From an uncultured archaeon (GTDB taxonomy: Archaea > Altiarchaeota > Altiarchaeia > IMC4 > CAZEGI01), in assembly GCA_964512105.1 (NCBI GenBank), contig CAZEGI010000002.1:15125-79124 (forward strand): 64,000 nucleotides of DNA. Direction: 5' to 3'. Shown in pieces: positions 9,898-51,384 of this stretch. The notes below the pieces were generated by a model. The model was not told the DNA's origin and did not search any database. It saw only the letters and a program-made list of their open reading frames with translations. A program made the translations under genes and the position numbers. Numbering within the stretch: position 1 is the first letter of the stretch; every line of letters starts with the position of its first letter.

Positions 9898-10788
9898 TTA
9901 AAAATACTCCCCGTGCAACAGCGAACGTGCTATGTCGTTTCCTACGCCCGCGGAAAAACCGGAAAGTATCTCCTCAAGGGATTTTTTGAGTTTTATCTCC
10001 TTCAGTTTAGGTTCGCCCTCGACACCGCCAAGCTCCGCAGCGATCTTGATTGCATCCTCTCTCGTCCCAAGATAATCCACGAGCCCCAAGCTGAACGCCT
10101 TAGCCCCGATGTATATGCTGCCGTCCGAAATGTTTCTCACGTACCTCACGGATAAATTGCGGTTGACTGCTATATCTGTTACAAGGTCGTTATAGACGGA
10201 ATCCACCATCTCCTGCAATTCGGTTTTTTCCTCGTCGGTTGCTGGTCTGTACGGGCTTCCAATATCCTTGCTCTTTCCGGCCTTTATGACAGTCATGTTT
10301 ATCCCGATTTTTTCCATAAGACCATAGTAGTGCTGCATCGTCATAATTACCCCGATGCTACCCATAATCGAGTTCCTGTCAGCAACTATCCGGTCCGCAC
10401 CAGTCGCGGCGTAGTAAGCGCCGGAAGCTCCGGTTTCACCTATCCATGCGACCACGGGTTTTTTGCAGTTTCGTATGGAATCCATCAGCTCCCTGCTCGC
10501 AACGACAGAACCGCCACCGCTGCTTATCTCAAGCACGATTGCCTTTATCGCGTCGTCCTCAACCGCGAGGTCGAGTTTCTTTTTTATGTCTCCAACATCC
10601 GCACAGCTCGGACTTTCAAACAAACCGGCCGGACAACCCTCAAGCGTTATCTCCCCGTAAACGGGAATTATCGCGATATTTGCTCCAAATTCGGGCAGCC
10701 TGAACGAGAGTAGAGCGAGCGCTATAATCGCCAAGGCCAAAATTGCGAATATCCCTGAAACTATTAAAATTTTGTGTTTGGTTTTCAT
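9898..10788 (-). CDS. sppA: Signal peptide peptidase SppA (S49 family). The start was moved to the internal Met MKTKHKILIV because the longer ORF runs into the tRNA fragment and hairpin.
   Basis: N-terminal TM helix, then the crotonase/ClpP-like peptidase core (VLEISSGGGSVVAS, GASGAYYAATGADRIVA). Confidence 0.85.
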   Translation of the reverse strand: MKTKHKILIVSGIFAILALAIIALALLSFRLPEFGANIAIIPVYGEITLEGCPAGLFESPSCADVGDIKKKLDLAVEDDAIKAIVLEISSGGGSVVASRELMDSIRNCKKPVVAWIGETGASGAYYAATGADRIVADRNSIMGSIGVIMTMQHYYGLMEKIGINMTVIKAGKSKDIGSPYRPATDEEKTELQEMVDSVYNDLVTDIAVNRNLSVRYVRNISDGSIYIGAKAFSLGLVDYLGTREDAIKIAAELGGVEGEPKLKEIKLKKSLEEILSGFSAGVGNDIARSLLHGEYF

Positions 10789-10808
10789 TTTCTTTCTTTT
10801 CGTAAACG

Positions 10809-10837
10809 TTTTCTTTCTTTTTCTAAAAGAAAGAAAA
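10809..10837. repeat. Perfect 13-bp-stem hairpin ttttctttctttt-tct-aaaagaaagaaaa, directly abutting a tRNA-Gly 3' fragment
   Basis: Inverted repeat read directly from the sequence. Confidence 0.8.
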
Positions 10838-10840
10838 GGT

Positions 10841-10861
10841 TTGCGGCTGCCGGGATCCGAA
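10841..10861 (-). other. 21-nt fragment identical or near-identical to the 3' end of tRNA-Gly (ttgcggctgccgggatCcgaa versus ttgcggctgccgggatTcgaa in the intact gene). Pseudo-tRNA or att-like remnant.
   Basis: Direct comparison with the intact tRNA at 11019-11093. The T-arm cannot close, so it is not a functional tRNA. Confidence 0.6.
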
Positions 10862-10988
10862 ATAAGGGACTTGCAGTCCCTAATTACGACCAACGGTCGT
10901 AATTTGTCACGAATCTTCGATTCGATAACATATCAACCCTAGGCCACGTCAAGGTCATCGAGCAAACGAAGTTTGCGAAGATGGCCTA

Positions 10989-11018
10989 TGTTTTGATAAA
11001 ACTTTTGTTAAAAGTTTT
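10989..11018. repeat. Palindromic element, copy 1 (tgttttgataaaacttttgttaaaagtttt; 9-bp stem, loop gtt), directly abutting the 3' end of tRNA-Gly. Possible terminator.
   Basis: Perfect inverted repeat aaaactttt/aaaagtttt. Related copies at 11291-11320 and 47918-47945. Confidence 0.7.
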
Positions 11019-11093
11019 TGCGGCTGCCGGGATTCGAACCCGGGTCGCAAGATTGGCAATCTCGAGTGATAGACCAGACTACACTACAGCCGC
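11019..11093 (-). tRNA. tRNA-Gly (anticodon GCC)
   Basis: Reverse complement GCGGCTGTAGTGTAGTCTGGTCTATCACTCGAGATTGCCAATCTTGCGACCCGGGTTCGAATCCCGGCAGCCGCA folds as a cloverleaf. 7-bp acceptor stem, GTTCGAATC T-loop, anticodon loop TTGCCAA. Confidence 0.85.
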
Positions 11094-11164
11094 TTCAACT
11101 TTTTTCATCCACTCCTGCAGCGGAGTTTCACAAGTTTTTGTTTTTTTCTTTTTAGGGTGAAACA

Positions 11165-11227
11165 CTTTTTCTTTTTTTAAAAGAAAAAGGGCTCCTTGAG
11201 TGATAGACCAGACTACACTACAGCCGC
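11165..11227. repeat. Hairpin ctttttctttt-ttt-aaaagaaaaag (11165-11189), followed at 11198-11227 by a 30-nt exact copy of the tRNA-Gly 5' half (gagtgatagaccagactacactacagccgc)
   Basis: Exact 30/30 match to 11064-11093. Confidence 0.75.
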
Positions 11228-11290
11228 ATTTGTCTTTCCCGTTGTATCTGCCGTAGTTGAGGTGCATTAAGCCATTAGCTTAATGCGCCG

Positions 11291-11335
11291 TGTTTTGATC
11301 AACCTTTTGTTAAAAGGTTGCTACACTACAGCCGC
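11291..11335. repeat. Palindromic element, copy 2 (tgttttgatcaaccttttgttaaaaggttg), followed by a 15-nt copy of the tRNA-Gly 5' end (ctacactacagccgc)
   Basis: Inverted repeat caacctttt/aaaaggttg. 15/15 match to 11079-11093 and the same following ttc. Confidence 0.7.
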
Positions 11336-11416
11336 TTCCTTATCCTCGCTGAAGAGAATATATTTTTGTTACTTAACTTAAATATTCAATACAAGAATAC
11401 ATATAGGAAATAAAAA

Positions 11417-12385
11417 ATGTACCCCCTGCTATTTATATTCGCGGTTTCGTTCATGACCACTTTTTTGACCATGCTTTGGCTCATCCCAAAACTTGAGAGG
11501 GCAGGGATAGTGGGCAGGGACGTGAATAAACCAAACCAACCAGAAGTTCCGGAGATGGGTGGGTTCGGCATTATAGGCGGGCTTTGCATAGGCGTGTTGG
11601 TCGCTATTGGTATGCATACGCTTCTCGGCTGGTTTGAGGACATACACCTGACCTACCTGCTTGCGGCCCTGGTAACGATACTTCTCATGTCGCTCATCGG
11701 AATTTTCGACGACCTGTTTGCAATGCATCAGGCTGTTAAGGCGACACTGCCGTTGCTTGCCGCACTCCCGCTCATGGCGGTAAACGTTGGCGTGAAGAGC
11801 ATGGGCATACCATTCGTCGGCGAGGTTTATCTTGGCATTCTCTATCCTCTGATCCTGATACCGTTGGGCATCGCGGGCGCATCGAATGTAACGAACATGC
11901 TTGCAGGGTTCAACGGACTTGAGGCGGGAATGGGTCTCGTTGCGTGTTCCACGCTTAGTATCATAGCGTTCAAGATTGGGCGTACTGATGCACTGGTGAT
12001 ACTAATCCCCATGGTTGCGGCATTACTCGCTTTTCTTTTTTACAACAGGTATCCATCAAAGGTTCTCATCGGGGACATAGGGACATTGAGTATAGGGGCA
12101 GTTATTGCATCATCCGTAATCATAGGAAACTTCGAGTTTGCGGGAATAATCCTGATAATCCCGTACGCATTCGATTTCGTGATAAAGGCAGTTAACGGGT
12201 TCCCGAGCAAGGGTTGGTGGGGGCGCTACGAGAATGGAAAACTTTACCCGCTCGGCAAAAAACCCGTGGGTCTGTGCCAAACCGTAATGTATCTGTTCGG
12301 GGGCGTAAGTGAGCGGAAGCTGGTGCTGACACTCATGGGTCTTGAGGTTCTGTTCGGCGTTCTTGCGCTTCTTATATTTATGTAA
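11417..12385 (+). CDS. UDP-GlcNAc:dolichyl-phosphate GlcNAc-1-phosphate transferase (AglH/GPT; MraY/WecA GT4 superfamily)
   Basis: Multi-TM protein with DDxxD-like FDDLFAMHQ and NVTNMLAGFNGLEAG motifs typical of the polyprenyl-phosphate HexNAc-1-P transferase family. Confidence 0.85.
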   Translation: MYPLLFIFAVSFMTTFLTMLWLIPKLERAGIVGRDVNKPNQPEVPEMGGFGIIGGLCIGVLVAIGMHTLLGWFEDIHLTYLLAALVTILLMSLIGIFDDLFAMHQAVKATLPLLAALPLMAVNVGVKSMGIPFVGEVYLGILYPLILIPLGIAGASNVTNMLAGFNGLEAGMGLVACSTLSIIAFKIGRTDALVILIPMVAALLAFLFYNRYPSKVLIGDIGTLSIGAVIASSVIIGNFEFAGIILIIPYAFDFVIKAVNGFPSKGWWGRYENGKLYPLGKKPVGLCQTVMYLFGGVSERKLVLTLMGLEVLFGVLALLIFM

Positions 12386-41439: not shown

Positions 41440-41871
41440 GTGAAAAAAGGCCTCGGTTTCGAATACCTCGAACACACAGCTGACCTGAAATTCGTTGCGA
41501 GGGGTAAAACGCTTGAGGAATGTTTCGAGAATTCCGCGTATGCGGTTTTCAGCGCGATTCTTAACCTGGATACTGTCGGTACGGAGCTGAAGACTCACGT
41601 AAAACTTGAAGCAAAGAATCTGGAAAATCTGCTCCACGATTTTTTAAGTGAATTACTGTTCCGGTTCTACACCAAAAAATTCATCCCCAAAAAATTCAAG
41701 ATAAAAATCAAGAAGCAGGGCGGCCTGTACCTGTTAAATTCCGAAATCCTCGGCGAAACCGTAAAAAAGAAACACAAACCCGAGCTCGAGGTTAAAGCCG
41801 TAACCTATCATGAGTTTTTTGTTGAAAAACGAAACGGTTTCTGGATTGCGCAGGTAGTTTGCGATACCTGA
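41440..41871 (+). CDS. Archease (RtcB tRNA-ligase cofactor)
   Basis: FEYLEHTADLKFVARGKTLEE N-terminal signature. Confidence 0.85.
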   Translation: MKKGLGFEYLEHTADLKFVARGKTLEECFENSAYAVFSAILNLDTVGTELKTHVKLEAKNLENLLHDFLSELLFRFYTKKFIPKKFKIKIKKQGGLYLLNSEILGETVKKKHKPELEVKAVTYHEFFVEKRNGFWIAQVVCDT

Positions 41872-46897: not shown

Positions 46898-47839
46898 CTA
46901 CTTCCCAACAGAAGCGAGACGCGCGAGAAGTGCCTCCAGTTGAATGCGTTCGTTCGCGCCTTCAACAAGAGTGAAGTTCGTTTCACCCACCAAATCAACA
47001 ATGTGGACTTTTTTTTCGTCCGGCAATTCCAAATTCATTGCCTCGGAGTTCATCTGCAGAAGTATGTCCTCCCCCGATAAGCCCTGGGCCAGCATGAGGC
47101 TATCCAGCAGGTTTCGTGCGTCAAGAAACTTACCTTTGAGCGCGAGCCCCATCATGTTTTTTATGTCCTCCGGCCTCGCGCGCGATGCGATTGAGAAAAC
47201 GGATTTCTCATCCACATGTCCGAGGGCGGCCGCAGTCTGTGCGACGTTTATCGCCTTTCTTAAATCACCTTCGGATATGTAAACTATGGCGTCTATCCCG
47301 TCCTTCGTGTGCTTCACCTTTTCTTCCTTGAGTATGTGCTCCACCATCCTTGCGATGTCCTCTTTTTTCAGGCGTTTGAACCTGAAGATTGCGCACCGGC
47401 TCTGTATGGGTTCAATAATTTTTGAGCTGTAATTGCACGAAAGGATGAAGCGGCACGTTTCCGTGTAACTCTCCATGGTTCTTCTGAGCGCGTTCTGCGC
47501 TTCCGGAGTGAGTGCATCTGCTTCGTCAAGGAATATTATCTTAAACTCGCTCCCTATGGGTCGCGTTCGTGCGAAATCCTTGATCTTTGTTCTCACGACG
47601 TCGATACCGCGCTCGTCAGATGCGTTCAGCTCGAGGAAACCCTGGTGGATATCGCCGAAAAGTTCCCTGGCAATGCACAGCGCAGCTGTTGTTTTTCCGC
47701 ATCCCGCAGGGCCCGCAAAAAGCAGATGCGGCATGGACTTTACCTTCACGTACGCTTCTAAACGGTCGGTTATGTGCTCCTGCCCGACCATGTCTTTGAG
47801 TTTTTTCGGCCTGTATTTCTCAGTCCAGGGTAATTCCAT
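46898..47839 (-). CDS. rfcS: Replication factor C small subunit
   Basis: WTEKYRPKKLKDMVGQEHI ... LLFAGPAGCGKTT ... DEAD box IIFLDEADALT ... SRC motif CNYSSKIIEPIQSRC. No intein. Confidence 0.9.
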   Translation of the reverse strand: MELPWTEKYRPKKLKDMVGQEHITDRLEAYVKVKSMPHLLFAGPAGCGKTTAALCIARELFGDIHQGFLELNASDERGIDVVRTKIKDFARTRPIGSEFKIIFLDEADALTPEAQNALRRTMESYTETCRFILSCNYSSKIIEPIQSRCAIFRFKRLKKEDIARMVEHILKEEKVKHTKDGIDAIVYISEGDLRKAINVAQTAAALGHVDEKSVFSIASRARPEDIKNMMGLALKGKFLDARNLLDSLMLAQGLSGEDILLQMNSEAMNLELPDEKKVHIVDLVGETNFTLVEGANERIQLEALLARLASVGK

Positions 47840-47892
47840 CTTACGTCTATAGTTTTGTACGGCTGTGTGAACTACTTATCTTGATCTAAGGT

Positions 47893-47945
47893 GTATTCGC
47901 CAGAGCGAATACGCCACTTTTGATAAACCTTTTGGAAAAAGGTTT
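47893..47945. repeat. Two adjacent perfect hairpins in the rfcS-ileS divergent intergenic region: gtattcgc-caga-gcgaatac (47893-47912) and palindromic element copy 3, cttttgataaaccttttggaaaaaggttt (47918-47945)
   Basis: Inverted repeats read directly. The second shares ttttgataaaCCTTTTg..AAAAGGttt with the tRNA-Gly-associated copies. Confidence 0.7.
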
Positions 47946-47982
47946 GGGGAGTTCCATCTTGCGTAGTTATTATCCAAAAATC

Positions 47983-47990
47983 CTTATAAA
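47983..47990 (+). promoter_or_regulatory. TATA-box-like element (cttataaa), ~30 nt upstream of the conserved ileS leader block
   Basis: The AT-rich octamer is at the expected distance from the inferred leader 5' end (~48015). Confidence 0.4.
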
Positions 47991-48015
47991 CTGAGAATAC
48001 ACTTAATTTAACTTT

Positions 48016-48123
48016 AAAATCAGATACTCCACCCTAGTTGCGGAGTATTACTTCCAAACACGCAAATGGGTATCGGAGGTGTAAACGCGAGGTAGATACA
48101 ATTCATATCCTCGCGTGTTTGTA
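48016..48123 (+). promoter_or_regulatory. Conserved structured 5' leader, copy A (upstream of ileS). Hairpin 1 is atactccac...gcggagtat (48024-48048). Hairpin 2 is acgcgagg-16 nt-cctcgcgt (48085-48116). Then gtttgta before the ATG.
   Basis: Near-identical blocks and spacing to 51267-51384. Stems are conserved while loops differ. Confidence 0.6.
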
Positions 48124-51236: not shown

Positions 51237-51266
51237 CCTAATACTTAAAGATATTACCTTTGGTTC

Positions 51267-51384
51267 AAAATCAAATACTCCACCCTAAAGGGCGGAGTAT
51301 GACTTACAAACACTAGAATGTACAAAAACCAAAAACAGGGGGGTGGAAACGCGAGGTAGAGGAATGTATCCTCGCGTGTTTGTA
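51267..51384 (+). promoter_or_regulatory. Conserved structured 5' leader, copy B (upstream of the rpl21e-rpoF operon). Hairpin 1 is atactccaccc...gggcggagtat (51275-51300). Hairpin 2 is acgcgagg-13 nt-cctcgcgt (51349-51377). Then gtttgta before the ATG.
   Basis: See copy A. Identical 8-bp stem 2 and identical 7-nt spacer to the start codon. Confidence 0.6.

Follow-up and report, generated by a model that had tools for sequence, protein, structure and literature searches.

Partial tRNA-Gly copies beside palindromic hairpins in an Altiarchaeota genome: possible traces of small gene-less cassettes

Partial copies of tRNA genes are familiar from tRNA-targeting integrative elements such as the archaeal SSV1 and pNOB8 types and the cis-mobilizable elements (CIMEs), in which direct repeats of part of the tRNA flank the gene and serial events lead to arrays; the islands of Prochlorococcus reportedly hold such partial-tRNA arrays. 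Among the short intergenic repeats, repetitive extragenic palindromes (REPs) do not duplicate their target, and miniature inverted-repeat transposable elements (MITEs) have terminal inverted repeats and short duplications of fixed length. The nearest published case to the locus described here is the tRNA-Thr-F/tRNA-Thr-II pair of Caldiarchaeum subterraneum (Sugahara et al. 2012, PMC3293823), where a 5′ fragment identical to the gene lies upstream of it as a direct repeat and flanks an insertion of 1.87 kb that encodes a putative recombinase. That insertion was linked to the gain of a tRNA intron, and the arrangement was also found in an uncultured archaeal population (PMC3293823). In this study, a tRNA-Gly(GCC) gene and three partial copies of it (stubs F1, F2, and F3) were analyzed in a 64-kb window of an uncultured Altiarchaeota archaeon; the window, meaning the whole stretch of DNA, is referred to as W, and homologous loci or contigs compared with it carry L-numbers.

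The locus of W resembles that of Caldiarchaeum in that a 5′ tRNA fragment stands as a direct repeat upstream of an intact gene and flanks inserted DNA. It differs in its inserts, which are gene-less, hairpin-bearing, and 90–160 bp long, in having stubs at both ends of the gene, and in that a protein gene is affected as well. The best reading of the locus is one functional tRNA-Gly(GCC) with three partial copies that are by-products of rearrangement and not genes. The stubs could be direct repeats produced by duplicative insertion of small palindromic gene-end cassettes, an account that has about the same chance of being right as of being wrong.

The tRNA and its stubs occupy the spacer between the gene of the S49 peptidase SppA (start codon at 10788) and the divergent gene of a family 4 glycosyltransferase, GT4 (start at 11417). 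On the minus strand the features follow one another in the order given below, with a 33-nt tail between hairpin C and F2, a conserved trailer closing the B′ module, and the SppA start after hairpin B.

11357–11367, minus strand: TATA-like box AAAAATATATT of the putative promoter P0, centered about 27 nt upstream of F1
11321–11338, minus strand: F1, a 5′ stub of GAA plus tRNA positions 1–15, 18/18 identical and flush to hairpin A′
11300–11320: hairpin A′ (H-type), CAACCTTTT-AAC-AAAAGGTTG, 9 bp, −8.7 kcal/mol, z = −4.1
11291–11299, minus strand: ATCAAAACA signature after hairpin A′ (H + ATCAAAA pattern)
11261–11289: hairpin C, the second stem-loop of cassette 1, −16.5 kcal/mol, z = −6.7, followed on the plus strand by GTGTTTTGAT
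11195–11227, minus strand: F2, a 5′ stub of tRNA positions 1–33 with G28 changed to A, 32/33 identical
11140–11194, minus strand: B′ module of GAGCC, an 11-bp T/A-rich hairpin (B′, 11165–11189), and TGTTTCACCCTAAAAAGAAAAAAAC, homologous to trailers of relatives
11019–11093, minus strand: intact tRNA-Gly(GCC), found by ARAGORN and by Rfam (RF00005, 63.9 bits, threshold 29)
10989–11018, minus strand: hairpin A, AAAACTTTT-AAC-AAAAGTTTT (10998–11018, 9 bp), plus ATCAAAACA, flush to the tRNA 3′ end
10941–10987, minus strand: element E, a stem enclosing TTCGC...GCTCGA, recognized from relatives and covariation
10865–10881, 10882–10904, and 10910–10924: three perfect hairpins with 3-nt loops, −30.4 kcal/mol and z = −5.5 for the block
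10840–10861, minus strand: F3, a 3′ stub from T54 of the T-loop to A73 (TTCGGATCCCGGCAGCCGCA + AA), 19/20 to 21/22 identical
10801–10845: hairpin B, close upstream of the SppA start codon, with a 13-bp T/A-rich stem at 10809–10837 that can be extended to 21 nt

The single intact tRNA-Gly of the original prediction was confirmed by ARAGORN and Rfam alike. It is the sole tRNA in the 64 kb according to both programs, also when introns were allowed in ARAGORN, and at a permissive E-value Rfam returned nothing but noise besides it. The three partial copies are likewise real and slightly longer than first described, with 18 nt in F1, 33 nt in F2, and 20–22 nt in F3. When repeat significance was taken from alignment scores against 2000 shuffles, the scores of F1, F2, and F3 were reached by 0/2000. 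Jointly the stubs are identical to the tRNA gene at 71 of 73 nt, whereas the neighboring cassettes have diverged. The window contains no second copy of tRNA positions 34–53 with any anticodon, and the stub/cassette junctions show no convincing microhomology. Like scars of attachment (att) sites, the repeated tRNA segments bracket inserted DNA, with spacers of 93, 101, and 157 bp in which no open reading frame (ORF) was found. An assembly artefact, raised at the outset as a possible source of the fragments, was rejected, as the SppA-GT4 spacer of about 628–629 bp is identical in six contigs from different samples and different assemblers. The longest SppA ORF (9898–10893, minus strand) starts at a TTG within the stub and hairpin region and spans F3 and hairpin B; a 331-aa SppA is called in two public assemblies (L004, L006) and a 296-aa version from the ATG at 10788 in four, the longer call being a likely annotation artefact.

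All perfect palindromes whose stems reach 8 bp or more were counted over the whole window and compared with whole-window shuffles. Six of the 14 fall within the 530 bp of this locus, while the shuffles give 2–5 in total. All hairpins of the locus fold better than shuffled sequence, with z-scores of −3 to −6.7. The predicted stems of 13 bp at 10809–10837 and 9 bp at 10998–11018 and 11300–11320 were recovered, whereas the stem at 11165–11189 has 11 bp and not 13. Direct abutment of every copy by a hairpin had been claimed as well; it applies to F1 and the intact tRNA (0 nt), whereas F3 is separated from its hairpin by 3 nt and F2 by 5 nt (GAGCC). A further strong hairpin, first placed at 11258–11285, was located at 11261–11289 as hairpin C, with 12 bp, a 5-nt loop, and one mismatch (C-A on the minus and G-T on the plus strand). 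A promoter and terminator scan with a bacterial model, of little relevance to an archaeon, flagged hairpin C plus TTTT on the plus strand. The A and A′ units share 26 of 29 nt, and two base pairs have changed with pairing kept. The H + ATCAAAA pattern occurs three times in the window, twice at the tRNA locus, compared with 0.01 expected occurrences. Hairpin C could not be aligned with element E, and a perfect hairpin is also present inside 10941–10987. K-turn, C/D-box, and H/ACA readings of element E were rejected, no match being seen by eye.

In the favored account, short non-coding hairpin cassettes would have been inserted at both ends of the tRNA transcription unit, and 15–33 bp of target would have been duplicated at each insertion. 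As the targets would be the first or last nucleotides of the tRNA gene, their duplicates would be tRNA stubs. The outermost stub would keep the ancestral flank, F1 on the old promoter and F3 beside the old trailer hairpin B and SppA, and the regenerated complete copy would carry on as the gene. The cassettes fall into two families, A (H hairpin, ATCAAAA, and a second stem-loop) and B (T/A-rich hairpin and a GTGTTTCACCC..AAAGAAA trailer). At four sites in the window repeats lie flush to a cassette, as target-site duplications do, and the duplications measure 15–18, 19, 20, and 33 bp. The stubs would stem from an insertion accompanied by target duplication and not from a duplication with later deletion, and they would be without function. 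A variant in which the right arm of H would be copied from the local target fits the 3′ cases (W and tRNA-Met of L063), in which the left arm seems to be part of the repeat, and does not fit F1 or the RFC locus described below.

The ancestral state is visible in relatives. The flanking proteins of W (SppA matches 50–60% identical, GT4 matches up to 66% identical) place it in the Altiarchaeota. A tRNA-Gly(GCC) is linked to GT4 in 13 Altiarchaeota loci, and in the nine nearest the tRNA 5′ end lies 50–100 nt from GT4 with a TATA box in between. Stubs are patchily distributed and absent in the closest relatives of W (L009, L010, L011, and L102). In W, it is F1 that lies 81 nt from the GT4 start codon, the intact tRNA following 242 bp further on. 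The TATA-like box of P0, which may be an active promoter, agrees in position with the TATA boxes upstream of the tRNA in relatives, and on direct reading of the sequence neither F2 nor the intact tRNA was seen to have a comparable box 27 nt upstream. As F1 thus occupies the ancestral tRNA distance from GT4 and has a TATA box at −27, the original start of the gene is where F1 stands, and the functional copy now lies displaced by 242 bp. The comparison with related genomes suggested in the original prediction returned both the ancestral spacing and close relatives that carry no stubs.

A third A cassette was found at 47886–47945, upstream of the gene of the RFC small subunit (46898–47839, minus strand).

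47828–47990, minus strand: RFC parallel locus, with a TATA box (47982–47990), a stub (47946–47964), an H hairpin (47925–47945), a stem-loop (47890–47915), and the real start (47828–47846)

On the minus strand, a canonical TATA box is followed by the stub ACGCAAG-ATGGAACTCCCC flush to H, ATCAAAAGT, the stem-loop, a 43-nt tail, and the start ACGTAAG-ATGGAATTACCC. The duplication of the start amounts to 16 matches over 19 nt, a score reached by 3 of 2000 shuffles (P about 0.0015). Four relatives (74–77% identity) show a plain promoter followed by ATGGA(A/G)CTTCC and no cassette; it is the stub of W that retains the ancestral CTN leucine codon used by these relatives, together with the canonical TATA box. 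The RFC region is identical in four further contigs. The RFC gene overlaps the next gene, and no A cassette lies 3′ of it. In the favored reading, a cassette would have been inserted in the lineage of W at the start of an essential protein gene and would have duplicated that start, as at F1. With this architecture also present at a protein-coding gene, the pattern is not confined to tRNAs, and it is apparently a general, little-described form of genome scarring rather than a tRNA-specific device. The RFC stub also opens a 23-codon ORF (MELPKPFSKRFIKSGVFALANTP, then a stop) at 47886–47957 on the minus strand, which runs through both cassette hairpins and could be a leader peptide or chance.

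Comparable repeats recur in other lineages. In L034, 5′ stubs of 20 and 26 nt lie flush to a hairpin within two tandem H-E units, and the intact tRNA is devoid of the H-E module that both stubs carry. Stubs of 15 nt followed by module sequence occur at the 5′ side in L065, L090, and L007, and 3′ stubs beyond a cassette in L063 (tRNA-Gly, 16/16; tRNA-Met, 23 nt), L065, L066, and L034 (twice). Across loci, hairpin-flush repeats are enriched relative to offset controls. At least 10 repeat pairs were found across lineages, with spacers of 66–160 bp except for one of about 630 bp in L034, and none of them, those of L034, L063, L065, L066, and L090 included, encloses an integrase or other mobile-element gene. 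A metagenome collection was also scanned with a 22-mer of the tRNA D-arm, which yielded intron-bearing relatives, L087, and L090; contigs of W itself were not among the returns, so that copies in the same genome are undetectable there.

The modules themselves are likewise shared. Element E adjoins tRNA-Gly(GCC) in at least seven lineages, for example L034 (3120–3145 and 3245–3270), L026, L066 (3826–3860), L065, and L090, and it is inverted in L009. In Altiarchaeota it is always a neighbor of this tRNA gene, in some cases downstream of it and in others separating it from a 5′ stub. Six copies (W, two of L034, L066, L026, and L009) were aligned and trimmed by hand; around the invariant TTCGC..GCTCGA, both partners have changed in 6 of the 8 stem pairs, a covariation score that 0/500 shuffles reach. 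The A family (H + ATCAAAA) follows tRNA-Met in L063, lies upstream of tRNA-Pro in L087, and occurs repeatedly in L007. It also stands directly after gene ends in two viral contigs of IMG/VR, and in L109 hairpins follow stop codons. In L100, the nearest SppA relative of W, the 160 nt upstream of SppA (1–160) hold four H-type hairpins, H + ATCAAAA included. The contig of L100 ends inside this hairpin array, which suggests that H-type repeats break assemblies. The B module (RRCC, a T/A-rich palindrome, and GTGYTA..CCCAAAGAAA) is the trailer of the intact tRNA-Gly of L011 and of both tRNA-Pro genes of L087; B′ after F2 is an orthologue of these trailers and is also homologous to the trailer after the 15-nt 5′ stub of L007. 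A hairpin nearly identical to hairpin B follows tRNA-Pro(TGG) in L087, and hairpins lie flush to tRNA 3′ ends in W, L011, L026, L063, L066, L087, and L097. As such cassettes or trailers normally follow complete tRNAs in the lineage, each stub is followed by a normal tRNA trailer.

The cassettes are the ordinary gene-end hairpins of the lineage and probably serve to terminate or punctuate transcription, T-runs being present on both strands. As stable palindromes with T-runs they are placed at gene ends as terminators or REPs are, and the terminator character mentioned in the original prediction agrees with their resemblance to gene-end elements; they may thus terminate transcription. Compared with REPs, bacterial interspersed mosaic elements (BIMEs), other small intergenic palindromes, and MITEs, the cassettes of W are similar in being short, clustered, intergenic, and terminator-like palindromes that form families with variable stems in a compact genome. 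W differs in its long and variable duplications (15–33 bp) and in that no RAYT or transposase was seen.

Introns that open with similar hairpins interrupt tRNA genes of related archaea at three sites, the D-loop, 37/38, and the T-loop (L089, L092, L094, L095, L098, and L012), and in L012 a 37/38 intron interrupts the orthologous tRNA-Gly. The intron-bearing tRNA-Gly and tRNA-Pro genes (L092, L094, L095/L096, L098, L089/L091, and L012) were mostly missed by ARAGORN. An H-like hairpin and then (A)GCGAA(A)AGG stand at the start of several of these introns.

Further palindrome-rich arrangements were observed in the same relatives. L007, the nearest GT4 relative of W, has dense arrays of distinct palindromes with shared flanks, CCCGAAAAA..NNNN-CAAAG-NNNN..TTTTTGGG, at its contig ends (4450–5410 and 1–200), which also hold three copies of a unit of H, ATCATCATGACGG, and a hairpin. 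At 2340–2960 of L034 (minus strand), CACGAAACCGTCGGGGTG and an A/T-rich hairpin stand before each of the two downstream 3′ stubs; there, ACCGTCGGG pairs with CCCGACGGT of the stub to give a fold of acceptor stem and T-arm resembling a minihelix, and an orthologous version with compensatory changes in its inner hairpin is found in L063 and L065. In the close relative L087 (5800–6430, minus strand), the gene of prolyl-tRNA synthetase is preceded by two tRNA-Pro genes with a B-type trailer after each, and upstream of tRNA-Pro there are two tandem units of H and GATCAAAA, each flanked by a repeat of about 16 nt, GGAAAAGGTATC.GA.C. Within W, two leaders of about 110 nt, 82% identical, lie on the plus strand at 47990–48114 and 51245–51375, with two hairpins each (ATACTCC..GGAGTAT and AAACGCGAGG..CCTCGCGTGTTT); each is placed immediately upstream of a start codon, in one case of the gene of a 1033-aa class I tRNA synthetase and in the other of an L21e-like ribosomal protein gene, and they have no Rfam match.

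Several observations weigh against duplicative insertion of cassettes. There is no transposase, the three A cassettes have right ends that bear no relation to one another so that the terminal inverted repeats of a MITE or transposon are missing, and the duplications of 15, 19, 20, and 33 bp have no fixed length; this combination fits no known transposition chemistry. The 5′ stubs are each followed by the usual trailer of a complete tRNA, which is also compatible with tandem duplication of tRNA plus trailer and internal deletion. Four distant lineages (W, L007, L090, and L065) have the break at the same place, after G15, and this looks more site-specific than random insertion would lead one to expect. 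Moreover, stubs match the acceptor-stem sequence of each lineage itself, and the B′ module is common to W and L007 at a GT4 identity of 66%; should these traits be ancient, selection or gene conversion may be acting on the stubs, contrary to what dead scars would predict. Neither the intact tRNA nor the RFC gene has an obvious TATA box at −27, both standing behind T-rich hairpins. Finally, no polymorphism of occupied and empty sites was seen, as all 18 contigs (6 + 12, from different samples) carry the insertions.

Among the alternatives, classic serial site-specific integration of integrase-encoding viruses or plasmids at the tRNA-Gly 5′ and 3′ ends, close to what was originally predicted, is improbable. 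It would have left attL/attR and about 100 bp of element ends after deletion of the interiors, comparable to CIMEs and accretion arrays. The part of the prediction that holds is that direct repeats flank inserted DNA at the tRNA gene. These repeats of 15–33 bp lie at tRNA ends, the same 15-nt boundary in W, L007, L090, and L065 is what a fixed att core would give, H + ATCAAAA occurs in the two viral contigs, and the 5′ tRNA-Thr fragment with its recombinase-bearing insertion in Caldiarchaeum is a precedent (PMC3293823). W thus shares with tRNA-targeting integrative elements the partial tRNA copies as direct repeats on either side of the gene, and differs in that the defining integrase and a shared att core are missing. 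No integrase or recombinase domain was found in the 26 ORFs scanned, a subset of those in the window, and the 90–160-bp spacers are free of genes, with no ORF in any of them. The related A cassettes have three unrelated repeat cores, taken from the 5′ and 3′ ends of the tRNA and from the start of RFC, which a site-specific attP/attB system would not predict. Independent decay of at least 10 repeat pairs to such uniform spacers (66–160 bp, with the single exception) is unlikely, and what comes after each stub is the normal tRNA trailer of the lineage. Four scans of IMG/VR gave no tRNA-Gly fragment or attP-like junction: two tRNA-fragment patterns had 0 matches, and a stub + hairpin pattern had 27, all of which are taken as chance because none has the acceptor stem.

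Tandem duplication of the tRNA with its trailer hairpins to 3–4 copies, all but one being inactivated by internal or terminal deletions that palindromes may have promoted, is just as improbable. The paralogy of A′ after F1 and A after the tRNA, which have the AAC loop and ATCAAAACA in common, would follow from it, as would that of B′ after F2, the orthologue of the L011 trailer, and B after F3; the F1 junction can also be read as G15, CA (positions 72–73), and trailer. It requires, however, several deletions flush at the tRNA/trailer boundary, independently in several lineages, and it fails at RFC, which overlaps the next gene and has no A cassette after it. The stubs are about 97% identical to the gene, yet modules that should be equally old are partly unalignable, and in L034 the intact tRNA is without the H-E module present at both stubs.

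A functional role of the stub + hairpin units, as small-RNA genes expressed from P0 or as a promoter-proximal terminator or attenuator leader for the gene behind, would be slightly less probable still. For the family of small RNAs from tRNA halves put forward in the original prediction there is no support. Such a role could account for the canonical TATA boxes placed exactly upstream of F1 and of the RFC stub, the T-rich hairpins in which the stubs terminate, the match of stubs to the tRNA of their own lineage, the kept pairing in the changing stems of A/A′ and element E, the fixation of the arrangement in all sampled populations, and the 23-codon ORF from the RFC stub through the cassette. 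Close relatives (L009, L010, L011, L102, and L114–L117), however, manage without the arrangement, and the stubs differ in length, between 15 and 33 nt. Being identical and not complementary to the gene, they offer no obvious pairing switch, and DNA-level processes can keep palindromes perfect without selection on RNA.

A reading akin to the mis-parse named in the original prediction, in which the archaeal splicing endonuclease would join the fragments as exons of a split, permuted, or multi-intron tRNA-Gly, is highly improbable and largely refuted for this window. A bulge-helix-bulge (BHB)-like motif, taken as a central helix with 3 or more Watson-Crick pairs and a flanking helix, was present in 0/68 in-register joins. 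The stubs begin again at position 1 and do not carry the tRNA on, positions 34–53 occur nowhere else in the window, ARAGORN with introns adds nothing, and the pieces are redundant with the intact gene. When G-U pairs were allowed, the BHB scan returned only self-pairing artefacts of the repeats. What speaks for splicing are the introns of related archaea with their similar opening hairpins, stub ends near known intron positions, and an archease gene (cofactor of the tRNA-splicing ligase RtcB) at 41440–41871 on the plus strand; from this gene, the organism probably splices some tRNAs, though the locus has no splice motif. Like the split and multi-intron tRNAs of Nanoarchaeum, Caldivirga, and Thermoproteales, W has tRNA pieces that end in the D-arm, anticodon stem, and T-loop beside hairpin-rich flanks or introns; it differs from them in the missing BHB motif, the missing complementary leader/trailer pair, and the redundancy of the pieces. 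A hidden second tRNA-Gly isoacceptor was also rejected: read by eye, the CCC that follows F2 has neither U33 nor a purine at 37, and ARAGORN, the BHB scan, and searches for the missing middle were negative.

Partial tRNA copies are usually read as footprints of viruses or plasmids with an integrase, and here the same footprint would come from something much smaller and gene-less, in a pattern that recurs across the phylum and at an essential protein gene. As a tentative generalization, held as clearly less probable than the reading of W itself, Altiarchaeota may carry an undescribed class of gene-less palindromic cassettes that target the first 12–33 or last ~20 nt of tRNA and mRNA units and duplicate this target. 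They would leave a stub and a terminator-like hairpin on the old promoter, displace the gene by about 100–250 bp, and supply the hairpin-led non-canonical tRNA introns of related archaea. If the cassettes are not mobile, the locus is still relevant for annotation, as the stubs mimic att sites and tRNA halves and the over-called SppA of two public assemblies swallows one stub and its hairpin. If they are mobile, they would be a new kind of archaeal repeat element and would offer a concrete route from insertion and duplication to tRNA introns and split tRNAs, the origin of which is a long-standing question in tRNA gene evolution. Should this class of cassettes exist, the loci described here would be snapshots of disrupted tRNA genes, with introns or split, in the course of arising.

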